DNA of 64,000 nucleotides from an uncultured Eubacteriales bacterium (GTDB lineage: Bacteria; Acidobacteriota; Aminicenantia; Aminicenantales; Aminicenantaceae): positions 890 through 64,889 of the forward strand of contig CAYFWF010000047.1 of assembly GCA_964346815.1 (NCBI GenBank), written 5' to 3'. Made by a program: the position numbers and the translations under genes. Of the stretch, positions 3,885 through 47,877 are shown piece by piece. The notes below the pieces were generated by a model. That model worked only from the letters and a program-made list of their open reading frames with translations. It was not told where the DNA came from and searched no databases. Numbering within the stretch: position 1 is the stretch's first letter; every line of letters begins with the position of its first letter.

Positions 3885-5449
3885 AAAACAAATTCTTATT
3901 TTTCGGCGCTTTATTGGTCTTTACATACATTACTTCTCTTTGTATAGGGTGTACGGCAAAAAAAGAAAGTGCAGAGCCTGATTATTCTGTCTCATTGACG
4001 GATTGGAGCGATAAGCTCGAAGTGTTTATGGAATACCAAATGCCTACCCCTGGAGAAGAAATAAGTTTTGGCGTTCATGTAACGGATTTGAGTGATTTCA
4101 AACCCATCACAGAGGGAACACTGGCTCTTGTTTTCGTCAACCGCACCTCCGGACAAAAATCCGAAGCTCGAGCGGAAAATCCCATAAGGGACGGGATCTT
4201 CTCACCAAAACATACTTTTACCGAACCGGGAGAATACGACTTAGGCCTGACGCTCGAATCCGAAAAGGTCACGGATACCATGGACCTTGGAACTCTTGAG
4301 GTCTTCGAATCTTTATCGCTGCCTGAAAACGATGAAAAAATGTCCATCGATGAGGTGACTTTCCTCAAAGAGCAGCAGTGGAAAATGGAGTTCGATGTTG
4401 AACCCACAGAAATGCGGACCATCACGAACACCGTATCTGCTCCTGGAAAAATTATTGCTGCCCTCTACAGAATGGCGAAAATAAGTCCCCCACTTGACGG
4501 CAAAATAACATTAGACAAAAACGTCGTTCTGCCAAAACATGGGGATATGGTCAAATCAGGAGACATCCTCGCAATTATCGAACCATCTCTTGCATCATTC
4601 TCGAATTCTGACGGATACCAGATCGATCTGGAAGTGAAAAATTCCGAAACAAAACTCAAACTCGCTCAAAGCGAAGTGGAAAGACTGCGTGCGCTGTATG
4701 AAAAAGAAGCAGTTCCCAAAAAGAGACTGCTGGAAGCAGAAGCCGAACTGAATATCGCAGAGGCAAATTATAATAAAGCCATTAACAAGAAAGCGGCCTT
4801 CCAAAACATAAAGCTCCAGCCAGGTTCTGATTCCCAAAGCCCCTATTATTATGTCCGGGCACCCATCGACGGAAAAATAGTCGACCTGACATACACGCTG
4901 GGGGAACAGATCAAAGCCGGCGACATCATCATGACTGTACTCGACGATTCGAAAGTCTGGCTCGACATTGCCGTCTTCGAAAACGATATCGCCAAAATCA
5001 AAGGCTCATCCGGCGGGTACTTTACGATGACAGATAAAAGCCAGACATTCAATTTAGCCCAATACGATGGAGAATTGTTCTTTTTTGGTACAGTCATAGA
5101 TGAGAGCACAAGAACGATCTCCGTCATTTATGAGTTATCGAATCCGTCCAGCGAATTTTTGGTCGGCTCGTTCATCACCGCGCACCTGAATACGGCCGAG
5201 AACATTCAGACGATAAGCATCCCCAAGTCTGCCATATTTGACTCCGGAGGAAAAAAAGTCTGCTTTGTTCAGATCGGAGGGGAATCCTTTGAAAAGAGGG
5301 TCATTGAGCTGGGAATCGAAGGCCAAGACCATTTTCAAGTCCTCAACGGCCTTCAATCAGGAGAAAAAATCGTTGTTAAGGGAGGGTATGCCATTAAATT
5401 AGCAGCAGAGTCTTCCAGCAAAGATGTGGGAGAAGGACATTATCATTAA
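3881..5449 (+). CDS. RND efflux periplasmic adaptor (HlyD/CusB/CzcB family) with ~150-aa N-terminal extra domain
   Basis: Coiled-coil hairpin (EVERLRALYEKEAV...LLEAEAELNIAEANYNKA) and beta-barrel/MP domain motifs; position between OMP and RND genes. Confidence 0.8.
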   Translation: MKNKFLFFGALLVFTYITSLCIGCTAKKESAEPDYSVSLTDWSDKLEVFMEYQMPTPGEEISFGVHVTDLSDFKPITEGTLALVFVNRTSGQKSEARAENPIRDGIFSPKHTFTEPGEYDLGLTLESEKVTDTMDLGTLEVFESLSLPENDEKMSIDEVTFLKEQQWKMEFDVEPTEMRTITNTVSAPGKIIAALYRMAKISPPLDGKITLDKNVVLPKHGDMVKSGDILAIIEPSLASFSNSDGYQIDLEVKNSETKLKLAQSEVERLRALYEKEAVPKKRLLEAEAELNIAEANYNKAINKKAAFQNIKLQPGSDSQSPYYYVRAPIDGKIVDLTYTLGEQIKAGDIIMTVLDDSKVWLDIAVFENDIAKIKGSSGGYFTMTDKSQTFNLAQYDGELFFFGTVIDESTRTISVIYELSNPSSEFLVGSFITAHLNTAENIQTISIPKSAIFDSGGKKVCFVQIGGESFEKRVIELGIEGQDHFQVLNGLQSGEKIVVKGGYAIKLAAESSSKDVGEGHYH

Positions 5450-8587: not shown

Positions 8588-9421
8588 ATGAGAAAAATTG
8601 GTTTGACTTTAATGGCTATTATTTTTTTGTTTGCTGTTTCTGTCACAATTCTTGCTCATGATTTTTGGCTTGTCCCTAAAAAATTCAGGATTTCCCCAGG
8701 TGATTCGTTGATTATTCTGGCCAATACGGGAATGGATTTCCCGAACAGCCTCAGTGCAGTAACCCCAGATAGAATCGACCAGTTTGTACTTGCAGGGGAA
8801 TCAACAAAAGAGAATATTACAGAATTTACTGTCGAGGGGAACTCTCTTGCTGCGAATTGCTCTTTCGGAAAACCTGGGACTTTTGTCATCGCGGCGGCTT
8901 TGAAGCCCAACGAGATCAAATTGACAGGGAAAGAATTCAACGAGTACCTGCTTGCCGATGGCCTTCCCAACATTTATGAGCTCAGGAAAAAAGAAGGAAT
9001 CCTCCATAAAGACGCTGTCGAGTATTATTCCAAATATCCCAAGACAATTATCCAAGTCGGAAACAAAATTGACGATTCCCCGACAAAACCAATAGGCCTT
9101 CCCATCGAAATCGTCCCAAAGGTCAATCCTTATAAATTAAACAAAGGAGATGAGCTGGAAGTTTTGGTGCTTTTCCAAGGGAAGCCGCTTCCGAATGCGG
9201 AAATTGCGTGGAGTTACCCAGGACGGGGGGAAGAGTTTGCCGGCTCAGCAAAAACAGATGAATCAGGACAGGCATCTATTCCTTTGATAAAAGCCGGGCC
9301 ATATGTCATCAGGCTCACTCATATGGAATGGGTCAAAAAACCGACACGTGAATGGGAGAGCTATTGGACTTCTCTGACCTTCGAGGTTATATCTAACAAT
9401 AATTCTCAATCCCAAAACTGA
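8588..9421 (+). CDS. periplasmic protein, possibly DUF4198-like metal-binding protein
   Basis: Signal peptide followed by HDFWLVP start of mature protein; RBS GGAGG before ATG at 8588; all-beta composition; follows RND gene in the same orientation. Confidence 0.45.
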   Translation: MRKIGLTLMAIIFLFAVSVTILAHDFWLVPKKFRISPGDSLIILANTGMDFPNSLSAVTPDRIDQFVLAGESTKENITEFTVEGNSLAANCSFGKPGTFVIAAALKPNEIKLTGKEFNEYLLADGLPNIYELRKKEGILHKDAVEYYSKYPKTIIQVGNKIDDSPTKPIGLPIEIVPKVNPYKLNKGDELEVLVLFQGKPLPNAEIAWSYPGRGEEFAGSAKTDESGQASIPLIKAGPYVIRLTHMEWVKKPTREWESYWTSLTFEVISNNNSQSQN

Positions 9422-9461
9422 GACCAAAATTTGAGGATCGTTTTAATTCCAGAAAATAAAT

Positions 9462-10658
9462 TCACTCCTGGTGGCTATTCTCAGGAATTCGTTTCAGAAG
9501 ATCATCCAAAAGTTTTTTAGCTTCTTCATTATCCGGTTCCAACTCCAGTGCTTTTTTTATACTCTGAATACTCAGATCAACCTTGTTCAACTGAACATAT
9601 GCTTTACCTAAGTTAACGAAGCCATTTGCAGACTTTGAGTAAATGGATACAAAATATGTATAAAGTTCAACTGATTGTTGAGATTCATTGTTTCCCAAAT
9701 ACCTTTGGCCGACGGTGTTAAGGATGTCAGGAGGGGGAAGGACTTTGAATCCGAACCGTTTCGTTAAGGTCTCATAGTGCTTTTTTATGAAATCCAAGGT
9801 TCCACTCCTGAAGAATTCTAGCTCTGGAATCCACCCTGAAAAGAGATTCATCAATCCTTGATAAAATCCCTTTATGGGAACGTGTCCCTCACCCTCAAAT
9901 ATGTCAGAGTCCCACTTAAGTCCCAGATTTTCCTTATTATGGAGCAGGGCGTCGAATTTTCTTATTCCTTCATGAAGTTCTTCAGGTTCATTTCCTCCTC
10001 CTGAAAAGTACAGGTATTTATGGGACAGCAATTCGCCAGGAATTTCATCCAATCGATCGGATAAAAATTGTAGTCGCTCTTCGTTTTGAAGGACCGGACT
10101 GGATGCGATAAAGGCGGAAAACATAGCGGGATCCTTGAGGAGAATATAGGCTGTAAAAAAGCCAGCCAAGGAATGTCCAACCAGAATCCTGTACTCATGG
10201 ATCCGGTATTTTTTCTCGAGGTGGACAAACAATTCCTTTTTGAGAAAACAAATGAACTTTTCAGAATCCTTGATTGCCTGTGGATCGCTTGTCCTGCATG
10301 GATCCAGATCCCTCCTTCTGTCTGTATTGGGAATCCCCACAACGATCATTTGGGGGAGATAGTTGGGGGATATCATGTCCACAATACTCACACAGTACCG
10401 AAATGCCCAATCGCCATCGAGGACAAGCATAAGAGGATAGGACCCGTCTGAGCTTTCAAAATTATCCGGAAGATAGATCTCCAACGGCCGCCATTCACCT
10501 AAGATCTTAGAGAAAATTTGAGTTCTGTGTCCAATGATAATATTCTCGTCAATCTCTTTTTTTTGCGTATTTTGCATGGATTGAGCTGGAAAAATTTGTA
10601 TCATACAAAGTACAAAAAAAAGAAAAACAAGACACATTTTTGAGTTCATAATTATCAC
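9462..10658 (-). CDS. secreted esterase (esterase-D/enterochelin-esterase-like alpha/beta hydrolase) with C-terminal TPR
   Basis: Signal peptide; GHSLAG nucleophile elbow; C-terminal TPR-like segment (LGKAYVQLNKVDLSIQSIKKALELEPDNEEA). Confidence 0.65.
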   Translation of the reverse strand: MIIMNSKMCLVFLFFVLCMIQIFPAQSMQNTQKKEIDENIIIGHRTQIFSKILGEWRPLEIYLPDNFESSDGSYPLMLVLDGDWAFRYCVSIVDMISPNYLPQMIVVGIPNTDRRRDLDPCRTSDPQAIKDSEKFICFLKKELFVHLEKKYRIHEYRILVGHSLAGFFTAYILLKDPAMFSAFIASSPVLQNEERLQFLSDRLDEIPGELLSHKYLYFSGGGNEPEELHEGIRKFDALLHNKENLGLKWDSDIFEGEGHVPIKGFYQGLMNLFSGWIPELEFFRSGTLDFIKKHYETLTKRFGFKVLPPPDILNTVGQRYLGNNESQQSVELYTYFVSIYSKSANGFVNLGKAYVQLNKVDLSIQSIKKALELEPDNEEAKKLLDDLLKRIPENSHQE

Positions 10659-13530: not shown

Positions 13531-13774
13531 GTCCTATTTCCGCTCTCATTTTTTTCCGTCAAGTCTACTCACCAGCAGAAGTCACGGGATTAAATCCTAT
13601 GACTCCTAGTTTAATTCCAGGGACTTCTCAGGGACAAAAACATGACAAAATAGACCAAAACTGATTGTTTACCCTTGTTTTCGTCTATTTGCCGTGGTGA
13701 CATTAAATATTATGTTTTCAAAGGATTAGTGCCGAGGTCCGGACTCGAACTGGTACGCAGGCTCACTTACGAGC

Positions 13775-13787
13775 GATTTTAAGTCCC
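13775..13787. repeat. 13-bp direct repeat GATTTTAAGTCCC (copy 1) = anticodon stem-loop of tRNA-Leu
   Basis: Exact 13-nt match with 13965-13977; also present in intact tRNA at 2378-2390. Confidence 0.9.
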
Positions 13788-13964
13788 CTGTTCCATCAAA
13801 AATCCACCGTGTCCTTCTTGTGTCCCTCTTCTGCACAGGAGTATGCAGACTATACAGATAATTGGGAAAATACACATCTCCCTATTTTTCCAAAATCTGC
13901 TGATTTTTCAGTAAGTTACTGGCTTTTAATGCTTTACAGAAAAACTCGAATTCTCTTTCCTGAT

Positions 13965-13977
13965 GATTTTAAGTCCC
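13965..13977. repeat. 13-bp direct repeat GATTTTAAGTCCC (copy 2)
   Basis: Exact match; flanks the 177-bp insert. Confidence 0.9.
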
Positions 13978-14257
13978 TTGCGTCTACCAATTCCGCCACC
14001 CCGGCATACCAAGTGAGGGGATTATATCATAATCCTAAAACCCCAACAAGCTCTGGGAATTTCCATGCAGTCCACTCCTTACAAGGATTGCTTCAATCCA
14101 TATATCGACCCGCGTTGACATCGATGACTTCTTTCCATTCTTCGCCCTCTATGGACAGCAAAAACGAATGAGGCCCCGAGGTTCCCGCAGTATGATCCGA
14201 GTTGACATGGACCCAGACAGTGATAGAATAAGTTTAGAAGTGGGAGTGTTTGAAACG

Positions 14258-16428: not shown

Positions 16429-16509
16429 AACAAAACTTTGCTCTCTGCAAAGTTTTCACATATTTTTCCATTTTTTATAACTTCCAGCAAAGTTCATTTC
16501 GCTTTGTTT

Positions 16510-16786
16510 CAAAGTGAGGAGAAATAAAACTTGGAATAAAGGAGCAGGGAAATGTGGAAGCGACATTGAAGATTTAGCCTTCCAGAACCGCCCTGCGAGG
16601 GAATCCGATCTCGTCGGACTCCGAGGATGTATTGAGCACGACAATTCCGAAGATTTGAAACTCGGCTTAACATAGAATAACAACAAAGGACTTGAATTGA
16701 TCATGCGGAGTTCCGCAGGCGCCGAGAAGGACGGTGAAGGAATGGCGTTAAAAATCTGAACTAAAGCGAAGACATTTCCCTGCTCC
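16510..16786 (+). repeat. intergenic repeat element, copy A (full length; inner TIR 16541-16555 / 16772-16786)
   Basis: GGAGCAGGGAAATGT at 5' end pairs perfectly with ACATTTCCCTGCTCC at 3' end; conserved leader CAAAGTGAGGAGAAATAAAA; conserved blocks shared with copy at 38553. Confidence 0.7.
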
Positions 16787-17162
16787 CTATGACAATACCT
16801 CCCTCCATTCATTTTAAGAGAACCTTAATTCTTTACATCATCAACGCGTAAATCAAGCCTCACCATTTCCACAGCAGTTTGGATAACTTCCAACCAAGCT
16901 AGTCAGGGACCACCCAGTACGAACGGGCATGATGAGCGGAGTGTGTCGATATCATTAAAAGAGATTGCTTCACCATCAGAGGTGGTTCGCAATGACAACG
17001 GGCTTCGCTGGGGAAAAAAGCCGGGGACGAATCAGCTTGCCTGACTGTTCCCGCAGAGTGGTTTTTGAGAGGGTTTCATGAAGGGGCTTGATAATGTTGC
17101 TCGTTTGAGCAAAAATGAACAGAGATCGGGTGTATGAGTATTCAAGAAAGGAGACCTCGGGC

Positions 17163-29119: not shown

Positions 29120-29290
29120 CTGTTGGACTTGGATAGAAAGCTACGGAGTTGGCCGCGAGGACTGTATGAGCGCGGAATGATCGACTGGAGTGGCCTGAGA
29201 ATGGCAGAGAACAATGAGGGGCAACAACAGATAACCATGCGGAGTTCCGCGGGGCCGAGAAGTTTGGTGAGGGTAGACACTTACTATGGC
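29120..29290 (+). repeat. variant/degenerate copy D of the intergenic repeat family (internal blocks only, no terminal inverted repeats)
   Basis: Shares TGTATGAGCGCGG, AACAA..., ATGCGGAGTTCCGCGGGGCCGAGAAG and GGTGAGGG blocks with copy A (16640-16750). Confidence 0.45.
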
Positions 29291-38412: not shown

Positions 38413-38552
38413 GTTTCTTCTCCATCCCTTCATCGCTCGAAACAGACATAAATTACTATCCAAAGGGCATCCTTGGGAATTCGATAGAATCTTGAGCAAT
38501 GAGGACCGAACGGACCGCGAAATTTTTTTACGGGAAATAAAATCGGGATAAA

Positions 38553-38805
38553 GGTGCAGGGAAATGTCGGAGCGGCATTGAAGATTTAGCCATTACTGCC
38601 GTTCTTCGAGGGGATCTGACATAGTCAGACGGCGATGTTGTATTGAGCACGACTTTGCCAAAGGATACCAGTTGTGCGCAGGCACGGGAACAAAGGATAA
38701 AGGAGGAGAGTTAGGTGTTGTCGTGCACAGTTCAGCGCCGCCGAGAAGGGCGGCAACGGAATGGCGTTAAAAATCTGAACTAGAGCGAAGACATTTCCCC
38801 GCACC
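38553..38805 (+). repeat. intergenic repeat element, copy B (full length; leader 38525-38552; inverted outer motif CCGTCACTTTGGG at 38825-38837)
   Basis: 5' GGTGCAGGGAAATGT / 3' ACATTTCCCCGCACC; internal TGTATTGAGCACGAC, AACAAAGGA, GCCGAGAAG and 3' GGAATGGCGTTAAAAATCTGAACTAGAGCGAAGACATTTCCC blocks shared with copy A. Confidence 0.7.
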
Positions 38806-38910
38806 TTAGATGGATACTTCATCCCCGTCACTTTGGGACATACCCAAAAAATGAAATAATTACATTAACTGTAAAAATAGGGAAACTAGAGTATAGGATT
38901 GGATTTTTGA

Positions 38911-46899: not shown

Positions 46900-47160
46900 T
46901 TTTTCACCCCAAAGTGAGCATTTCCAAAACCGCGATAGCGTAACAGTCAGGTAAGCTGATTCGTCAGCCCGTGGATTTTCCCCAGCGAGGAAAATCCACT
47001 TATTCCTCGGCTCGCTCTCCCTACCTGCCAGTAAAGCTTGCTTTCCTTGCCCGCTCGCCTCCGGATGGCTTCCTAACCAGCTTACCTGACCGCTGTTGGA
47101 TTTGTCACGGTTTTGGGAATGCTTCCCAATCCAAACGAGATCTGGGAAAAACAAACTGAA
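46900..47160. other. structured intergenic region (13-bp long-range inverted repeat GTCAGGTAAGCTG/CAGCTTACCTGAC enclosing nested hairpins)
   Basis: Arms at 46936-46948 and 47068-47080; inner 9-bp hairpin GTGGATTTT...AAAATCCAC at 46961-46989; additional hairpin TTGGGAATGCTTCCCAA at 47113-47129. Confidence 0.3.
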
Positions 47161-47761: not shown

Positions 47762-47789
47762 CTGTTCTCCTCTCAAAAATTGGCTTCGC

Positions 47790-47865
47790 CCCAAAGTGAC
47801 GGAAAATAAATTTGCGAGAGAGGTGCAGGGAAATGACGGGGCGACATGGAAGATTCGGCCTTACG
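47790..47865 (+). repeat. truncated copy C of the intergenic repeat family (leader + 5' ~45 nt only)
   Basis: CCCAAAGTGACGGAAAATAAA leader and GGTGCAGGGAAATGACGGGGCGACATGGAAGATTCGGCC match the 5' ends of copies A/B; similarity stops where the downstream gene ends. Confidence 0.5.
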
Positions 47866-47877
47866 GTACTGTCTCAT

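Follow-up and report, generated by a model that had tools for sequence, protein, structure and literature searches.

A miniature transposon-like repeat family of Aminicenantes-type genomes with a probably selected RNA fold in its interior

Two intergenic segments in a 64,000-nt stretch of DNA from an uncultured bacterium of the Aminicenantaceae (contig CAYFWF010000047.1 of assembly GCA_964346815.1, positions 890 to 64,889; the whole stretch is referred to here as the window) share conserved ends and internal boxes around sequences that cannot be aligned. They raise the question of whether such segments are genes of a structured RNA, as an earlier note on this DNA had preferred, or copies of a mobile element. 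These two answers are complementary and not exclusive. We consider it probable that the segments, copies A and B, belong to a non-autonomous element family resembling miniature inverted-repeat transposable elements (MITEs), in which the RNA fold of the interior, on the + strand, and not the ends of the element, is under selection.

Both copies lie on the + strand in intergenic DNA and are 73.5% identical over 283 nt. The patterns of their 5' and 3' blocks have two exact matches each in the window, with none expected from shuffled sequences, which agrees with the conserved blocks and the unalignable middle described before. Both cores fold with a lower minimum free energy (MFE) than their shuffles (z scores in the table), they have an outer architecture in common, and a covariance model built from relatives matches exactly these two cores in the window, from end to end. 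The statement that the first 15 nt of a copy are the reverse complement of its last 15 holds exactly for A, while B has one A·C mismatch, and the difference between ggAgc/gcTcc and ggTgc/gcAcc is a true compensatory change that affects both arms. The local AATGT...ACATT hairpin, which had also been credited with a compensatory change, shows a one-sided replacement of U-A by U·G and no double change. The four copies counted in the earlier note comprise two complete cores, A and B, and two fragments, a 5' piece (copy C) and an internal piece (copy D).

Relatives numbering 40 or more were collected from metagenome-assembled genomes (MAGs) and metagenomes. A scan of species-representative genomes gave six loci in three MAGs, one of them labelled Candidatus Aminicenantes, a metagenome scan gave 21 further loci, and others were fetched via small 'hypothetical proteins' annotated on the minus strand of the element. 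The covariance model has 41 matches across 38 loci, on a single strand only, with several copies per MAG and at least four in MAG GCA_964400735.1. No similar element was found in plasmid and phage collections, and no literature was found that links Aminicenantes with MITEs or RNA motifs. The element family is therefore described here as real, multicopy and narrowly distributed, and it occurs in Aminicenantes-type genomes. Its members measure 150-330 bp and come as forms of ~325 bp, of 262 bp without the variable domain and of ~150 bp with the terminal hairpin only; the ~325-bp forms contain at least six mutually unalignable variable domains.

Every complete relative is bounded by terminal inverted repeats of ~23 bp (left GGCTTTGTCCCAAAGTGACGGGA; right TCCCGTCACTTTGGGACAAAGCC, or ...ACCTC), present in more than 20 relatives, and the element termini read GGCT. 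When the element ends are set 4 nt outside TTGTCCC and 8 bases per side are compared in 18 copies, 112 of the 144 flank positions agree and seven copies show a perfect 8-bp target-site duplication (for example AAATATTA, AATTAATT and AAAAATTA), against at most 65 agreements and no perfect duplication for all other boundary offsets. One more perfect 8-bp duplication, TTTTTTAT, was found at locus L028. The duplicated targets are AT-rich, and insertion sites are unrelated between genomes. At locus L004, which is syntenic with the window at 38.3-41.2 kb, the element lies on the opposite side of the tRNA-Pro gene, and the spacer between this gene and a DUF362 gene is ~360 nt shorter than in the window; no exact empty site for copy B was obtained there beyond this difference in length, the intergenic DNA being too diverged. 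Contigs often end within copies, and deletion derivatives as well as nested insertions of other small repeats are seen among the relatives. An 8-bp AT-rich duplication combined with repeats that begin with GG may point to a DDE-type transposase of the ISfinder families ISL3, IS1595 or IS256. Neither a transposase nor a reverse transcriptase is among the genes of the window, and no transposase adjoins the truncated copy at locus L003. A scan of viral contigs with a 15-mer returned 56 chance matches with no further similarity.

Inverted repeats, a duplication of fixed length, small size, the lack of a transposase gene and dispersed copies are defining features of a MITE, and the earlier argument that the segments are not MITEs is not supported. 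For a simple MITE the same note had expected near-identical copies with target-site duplications; the duplications are there and the near-identity is not. The family is an old, diversified MITE-like transposon and not the result of a recent burst.

The case for an RNA comes from covariation. In an alignment of 20 unique cores, RNAalifold predicts 52 pairs, of which 17 show double compensatory changes. For a second alignment the variable domain was excised and four more divergent copies were added. The hand-curated structure starts with P1 and a G·A-rich loop that contains two G-C pairs, and goes on with P2, P3, P4, the hairpin P5, P6 and P8. In it 93.9% of the cells are paired and 25 of the 54 pairs are changed on both sides, and none of 500 column shuffles reaches any of these measures. 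Sliding the partners by 1-3 columns leaves at most 49% pairing and at most 14 doubly changed pairs. Support is poor for P8 (68%).

According to this comparative evidence, the interior is an RNA of 180-255 nt read from the + strand. A rod (P1, the G·A-rich internal loop, P2, P3 and P4) is capped by the P4/P5/P6 three-way junction and a second junction; from the latter extend the expansion domain, which differs between subfamilies, and a hairpin whose AGUUC loop is invariant. If the internal loops are taken as G-C pairs with tandem G·A pairs beside them, P1 to P4 form an almost continuous rod that ends in a tight three-way junction. Three subfamilies have unrelated yet complementary P1 stems: P1 is wholly different in subfamily 2 (L024, L019) and in subfamily 3 (L031, L034), with GUAAAAUACACAGGAAUGG and GCCAUCAGGUAUGUCC each facing a perfect partner, and P2 has co-varied (GGAUCU/AGAUCC) around an unchanged core in both. 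A pseudoknot between GGGAAU and the AGUUCC loop was considered and rejected, as the variants are few and none of them is compensatory.

The core helices contain 61 G·U and 15 A·C cells on the + strand, whereas the terminal-repeat stem of the same elements contains 14 and 28, because of which the G·U bias is specific to the interior. In addition, 23 of 24 copies have a lower MFE on the + strand than on the opposite one (Wilcoxon p 2e-5). The orientation of the element relative to neighbouring genes is apparently random, and both neighbours are antisense in at least nine of 31 contexts; with orientation of this kind, a mutational bias that depends on the context of transcription or replication cannot explain the strand asymmetry. 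These sequence patterns suggest that selection acts on a + strand transcript, whereas the terminal repeats would act at the DNA level. Conservation follows the same division: within the A subfamily, mean pairwise identity by region is 0.78 in the terminal repeats, 0.72 in the spacers and 0.79 in the variable domain, as compared to 0.92 in the P1-P3 5' block, 0.97 in the P8-P3 3' block and 0.90 in the P2-P1 3' block. The RNA is thus more constrained than the sequences for transposase recognition, which is unusual for a MITE. Selection is placed on the RNA and not on the ends because the RNA is the best conserved part, its fold outlasts changes of P1 and of the repeats, and the G·U bias is seen on one strand only.

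The alternative that survives best, possible but unlikely in our judgement, accepts the same MITE and lets the fold act in cis only, as a co-transcribed hairpin that stabilises or terminates the mRNA or exposes it to RNase III, with no independent RNA; effects of this kind have been proposed for the bcr1, ERIC, BOX and Correia repeats (PMC3184786). Copies do lie in short intergenic gaps within operon-like gene rows, no promoter or terminator of their own was detected, and bcr1 and other MITEs with compensatory changes at the RNA level provide a precedent (PMC3184786). Nevertheless, one-strand selection is seen despite the apparently random orientation and the contexts in which both neighbours are antisense, and a stabiliser or terminator needs neither two junctions nor invariant junction strands nor an AGUUC loop kept across subfamilies. 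Less likely again, and doubtful, is a reading at the other extreme, in which the RNA is an obligatory partner of DDE-type cut-or-copy transposition (cofactor, scaffold or ribozyme) or represents a new class of RNA that forms ribonucleoproteins and has a transposon as its vehicle; if true, it would explain how the fold outlives changes of the terminal repeats and of P1.

An explanation purely at the DNA level, which we hold to be improbable, takes the blocks as subterminal transposase-binding sites and the stems as nested inverted repeats or a strand-specific fold of single-stranded DNA that serves in transposition or replication, with no function of an RNA. P1 does form a further inverted repeat immediately interior to the terminal ones, an arrangement found in transposons that have several binding sites, inversions between the P1 arms (L017) and between the terminal repeats point to DNA recombination there, and G·T wobbles are tolerated in DNA hairpins. 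Binding sites predict conservation of sequence, yet nearly half of the curated pairs are doubly changed and P1 is replaced in subfamilies 2 and 3, while the G·U bias found in the interior is missing from the true terminal repeats. Hairpin-dependent single-strand transposases of the IS200/IS605 type make no target duplications, and the duplications together with the inverted repeats point instead to double-strand DDE chemistry; tandem G·A motifs and multi-helix junctions are moreover typical of RNA. Two side observations concern these inversions. At L017 (68-383) the RNA core is inverted relative to both spacers, which amounts to an inversion between the P1 arms, and subfamilies differ as to the side of the core on which the four terminal bases GGCT, as opposed to GAGG or GAAG, are located (compare L013, L016, L004 and L020), from which inversions between the terminal repeats are deduced as well.

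The reading preferred in the earlier note, a non-mobile multicopy family of non-coding RNA genes that spread by ordinary duplication and carry a promoter in their 'leader', has become very improbable. Block conservation and covariation agree with it, and the window copies do lack intact terminal repeats and clear duplications. The leader is the inner part of the left terminal inverted repeat followed by an AT-rich spacer, and the other arm of this 23-bp repeat is found beyond the 3' end. Perfect 8-bp duplications around many relatives and the unrelated insertion sites in different genomes also stand against it.

That the minus strand encodes a small (~90-130 aa) Ser/Pro/Leu-rich protein is hardly credible: A-type, L018-type and short forms do have a frame without stops from one end of the element to the other (16456-16812 in copy A), longer than in 95-99% of shuffles, and at least 36 such public 'hypothetical proteins' (P0001-P0036) lie on this strand, yet substitutions per column at codon positions 1-3 are 0.60/0.75/0.72 with no third-position excess, half of the subfamilies (B, L004 and L005) interrupt the frame and still conserve the nucleotide blocks, and the proteins form tiny clusters with a Pfam domain in 0 of the 36. 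The frame stays open because the pyrimidine-rich strand is poor in stop codons, and P0001-P0036 are almost certainly not genes. The peptide GNVFALVQIFNAIP occurs on the minus strand of both window copies, and the earlier view that this shadow reading frame is non-coding stands.

Several points weigh against selection on an interior RNA as proposed here. Expression, strand and RNA ends are deduced from the sequence only, and scans for sigma-70 promoters and intrinsic terminators returned nothing convincing inside the element; the best promoter candidate, TTGTCC-15 nt-TAAAAT, falls in the left repeat and spacer. Counted per pair, G·U occurs in 25 pairs and A·C in 12, with a p of 0.047, and since G·T is the most stable DNA mismatch, some room is left for a strand-specific fold of single-stranded DNA. 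Because the sequences are related, independent events are fewer than the counts of covarying cells suggest, and block conservation could result in part from selection in source lineages only or from gene conversion between copies. Nested insertions are found in P4 and P5 of single copies. Single copies are dispensable because the cores of several relatives are broken in this way, and any purifying selection on copies after insertion is conjectural. Finally, the autonomous partner is the one defining MITE feature that is missing, as no pair of terminal repeats encloses a gene in 356 kb of loci.

With these reservations, the following course of events can be proposed for a MITE-like element with a selected interior RNA. 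A DDE-type transposase encoded elsewhere would bind the repeats, make 8-bp staggered cuts and mobilise the element in trans. Transcription of the + strand would start at a weak promoter of the element itself, located in its AT-rich left spacer, or result from read-through, and the transcript might be trimmed at the long terminal duplex to yield a stable RNA, whose tandem G·A loops and invariant junction strands would bind a protein partner. Element lineages with such an RNA could profit from it, for instance if it helped or regulated mobilisation as a cofactor or regulator. Our best guess is accordingly worded: a stable protein-binding RNA that serves the propagation of the element. Service to the element ranks first among the reasons for which the RNA may be kept, action in cis on neighbouring mRNAs second, and cargo useful to the host third. 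The constraint may act mainly on lineages that are still spreading.

The features of the four window copies are collected in the table.

Table. Features of the element copies in the window (positions count from the first base of the window)
Feature	Position	Strand	Evidence or remark
Copy A left terminal inverted repeat, degenerate, CGCTTTGTTTCAAAGTGAGGAGA	16500..16522	+	Aligned with A-type relatives
Copy A AT-rich left spacer, AATAAAACTTGGAATAAA	16523..16540	+	Part of the 'leader' of the earlier note
Copy A structured RNA core	16541..16786	+	Full-length covariance model match, 174.5 bits, E 3e-37; MFE z -4.95; covariation
Copy A P1	16541-16556 with 16771-16786		
Copy A core layout			Rod P1 to P2 to P3 to P4; P5 hairpin; then P6
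Copy A variable domain	~16641-16706		Subfamily-specific
Copy A right spacer and right terminal inverted repeat (heavily mutated)	16787..16826	+	Alignment with relatives
Copy B left-repeat remnant (last 6 nt, ACGGGA) and left spacer	38530..38552	+	
Copy B structured RNA core, B-type variable domain	38553..38805	+	Full-length covariance model match, 164.7 bits, E 5e-35; MFE z -6.14
Copy B right spacer and right terminal inverted repeat	38806..38845	+	
Copy C, truncated: left repeat, spacer, 5' strands of P1-P3 only	47782..47873	+	E 5e-11
Copy D, internal fragment of L035-type copy, P4 to P4 including variable domain	29129..29273	+	

The full element A extends from about 16500 to 16826. Its left repeat has four mismatches to the 19-nt repeat core TTGTCCCAAAGTGACGGGA, and the region of its right spacer and repeat is 0.60-0.68 identical to the relatives, in contrast to 0.92-0.98 in the RNA blocks. 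The 8-mers that flank it, GTTCATTT and AATTCTTT, agree at just 4-5 of 8 positions. The left spacer of copy A is a possible, unproven promoter -10 region, and the sigma-70 scan gave no match in it. In copy B the outer ~13 nt of the core of the left repeat (~17 nt with the four terminal bases) are missing or replaced, while the right repeat CCCCGTCACTTTGGGACAT is present at 38823-38841 as a minus-strand match with two mismatches, followed by the terminal ACCC at 38842-38845. The search for target-site duplications, suggested in the earlier note, was successful in relatives, and no clear duplication was found at the window copies. Copies A and B are probably immobile, because the right repeat of A has decayed and the left repeat of B is mostly gone, and they are probably best seen as relics whose RNA cores are still intact.

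Copy C occupies an 83-nt gap between two minus-strand genes. Copy D is 81% identical to the interior of L035 over 146 nt (blastn E 2e-36; nhmmer E 4e-4), lacks P1-P3 and the terminal repeats, and is sited between rpoD and the tRNA-Met gene. Its interpretation as an ancestral non-mobile RNA gene was rejected because L035, the subfamily from whose interior it comes, has terminal repeats. The window genes around the copies are an ordinary core-chromosome set, including gyrA, gyrB, dnaG, rpoD, lpxC, glmS, glmU, an RND pump and ABC transporters. Between a CDP-alcohol phosphatidyltransferase gene, on its 3' side, and copy A, a perfect 10-bp hairpin with T-runs on both strands is found at 16432-16456, which is probably the bidirectional terminator of that gene and no part of the element; the terminator scan gave no other hairpin with a T-run.

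As for the identity of the RNA, the Rfam 15 scan of the window yields three tRNAs only at gathering thresholds, and the position of the earlier note, that this is a structured-RNA family outside the known RNA classes, is borne out by strong covariation, the missing Rfam match and the absence of protein coding. No Rfam 15 family reaches its gathering threshold, 6S, RNase P, SRP, tmRNA, HEARO and the known ribozymes and riboswitches included. Permissive Rfam scans with copy A, the short form and subfamily 3 reach a top score of 23.1 bits, for Phe_leader (E 0.16), in a match that lies for the most part beyond the core and on the other strand, and the HEARO and IS605-orfB motifs of Rfam give no match. 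The best sub-threshold alignment by E-value is to RNaseP-T (RF02357), with 16.4 bits against a gathering threshold of 60 and an E of 0.11. It resembles RNase P RNA type T in aligning end to end on the short form, on the same strand, with the CR-I-like string GAGGGAAUCCG; the putative P4 strand of the element is, however, a local covarying hairpin (P5) and not the long-range P4 pseudoknot. With a local hairpin for 'P4' and CR-V-like letters that are unconserved among copies, the match was judged to be due to chance. A sponge of the CsrB/RsmZ type was also rejected: each core has 7-8 GGA, the enrichment of GGA/GAG amounts to a z of ~1.4, and just three GGA are unpaired; a single site, GAGGAUGU, is similar to the consensus for CsrA.

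Further small repeats were observed inside the element copies. A second small repeat of ~110-130 nt with palindromic ends (for example TTGGAGGGGGAAC...TTCCCCCTTCCAAC) is nested in copies at L028 (10075-10204), L031 (5379-5486), L012 (~200-330) and L001 (1-76). It sits at the same point of the P4 3' strand in L028 and L012, in the P4 5' strand in L031, and in the P5 loop, in opposite orientation, in L001; it is absent from the window. The L031 locus of another sample, L009, is without it, because of which the second repeat is polymorphic and probably active. Other nested insertions with inverted ends of their own, at L007 (~1560-1740) and L034 (~5165-5300) (TAACAATAGGGGACG...CGTCCCCATATTGT; AAGGATCAGGCTAAATGC...GCATCCAGCCTGATCCTT), replace P5 or the variable domain. 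Several MITE families, with insertions of one into another, seem to abound in these genomes. An insert of ~16-18 nt, CCGACCCAACCTAACCCA, is found between P2 and P3 in different subfamilies (L026, 10913-11181; L034, 5045-5453 and 8560-8760). The last of these, a truncated subfamily-3 copy at L034 (8560-8760), ends in the P5 hairpin and is followed, after ~300 nt, by fragments of a transposase gene of the IS110 family (DEDD; 8996-10380). IS110-type elements are known to target repeat hairpins, and this one may have inserted into the subfamily-3 copy.

Two observations concern the remainder of the window. At 13728-14006 (minus strand) a second tRNA-Leu(UAA)-like gene is interrupted in its anticodon arm by ~190 nt. 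The portion 5' of the interruption (13965-14006) matches the intact tRNA-Leu at 2331-2418 in 42 of 42 positions, the 3' portion is ~85% identical to it, and the insert has GGGACTTAAAATC at either side. Neither ARAGORN nor Rfam calls this gene, and no signal of a group I intron was found. A disrupted tRNA gene and an att duplication of an 11.6-kb island with an RND efflux operon are the two possible readings. Furthermore, a 43-nt inverted repeat, 79% complementary, lies at 17026-17068 and 46923-46965, in like orientation ~50-130 nt upstream of two unrelated genes, those of a TonB-dependent receptor (17115, +) and of a VIT/VWA protein (start 46795, -), and may be a shared regulatory or leader motif.

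If selection on the interior RNA is true, a large and complex RNA with a 180-nt core and 54 supported pairs, absent from Rfam and restricted to an uncultured lineage of which little is known, is spread by the DNA transposon that carries it and is no fixed gene. Most bacterial MITEs are conserved and selected at their ends, and this order is reversed here. The family would offer a test case for small transposons as vehicles of functional RNAs, or for small transposons that need an RNA to move. On the practical side, its copies account for at least 36 spurious 'hypothetical proteins' in public databases and for assemblies that break inside them.

Structured RNAs are known from mobile elements of other kinds. 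The omega RNAs of IS200/IS605 TnpB and IscB/HEARO and the bridge RNA of IS110 are similar in being structured RNAs of 150-300 nt that lie inside a mobile element and serve it. These elements have no such terminal inverted repeats or 8-bp duplications, and their RNA adjoins a protein gene and reads out a guide, whereas the element described here has no adjacent protein gene and its AT-rich targets show no sign of guiding. Mobile insertion cassettes of the MIC231 type carry the terminal inverted repeats of an insertion sequence around a passenger gene. They are likewise mobilised in trans, and the cargo, unrelated to transposition, is the selected part; in MIC231 this cargo codes for protein and the parent is IS231, while here it is a non-coding RNA.

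Among small intergenic repeats, ERIC/IRU, BOX, RUP and Correia elements (CREE/nemis) form long RNA hairpins when transcribed and can affect neighbouring transcripts (PMC3184786). They share terminal inverted repeats with the present family but are essentially single imperfect hairpins with TA or short duplications, and their effects in cis depend on orientation, whereas the strand selected here is independent of the neighbouring genes. None of them is known to have a multi-junction RNA with conserved unpaired strands.

The closest counterpart is bcr1 of the Bacillus cereus group, an interspersed, non-autonomous and transcribed element with short direct repeats, in which compensatory changes maintain a cruciform-like RNA (PMC3184786). 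Like the present family it is MITE-like, flanked by direct repeats and keeps its RNA structure through compensatory changes. Compared by description only, bcr1 is about half the size (~155 bp), makes 5-bp duplications and forms two simple stem-loops, whereas the element of Aminicenantes belongs to another phylum and combines 8-bp duplications with a ~55-bp rod, two junctions with invariant loops, and RNA blocks that are better conserved than the terminal repeats. MITEs with an RNA structure kept by compensatory changes were therefore already known from bcr1; what is new here is how large and complex the fold is, that it persists where subfamilies differ in their ends, and that it is better conserved than the terminal repeats.

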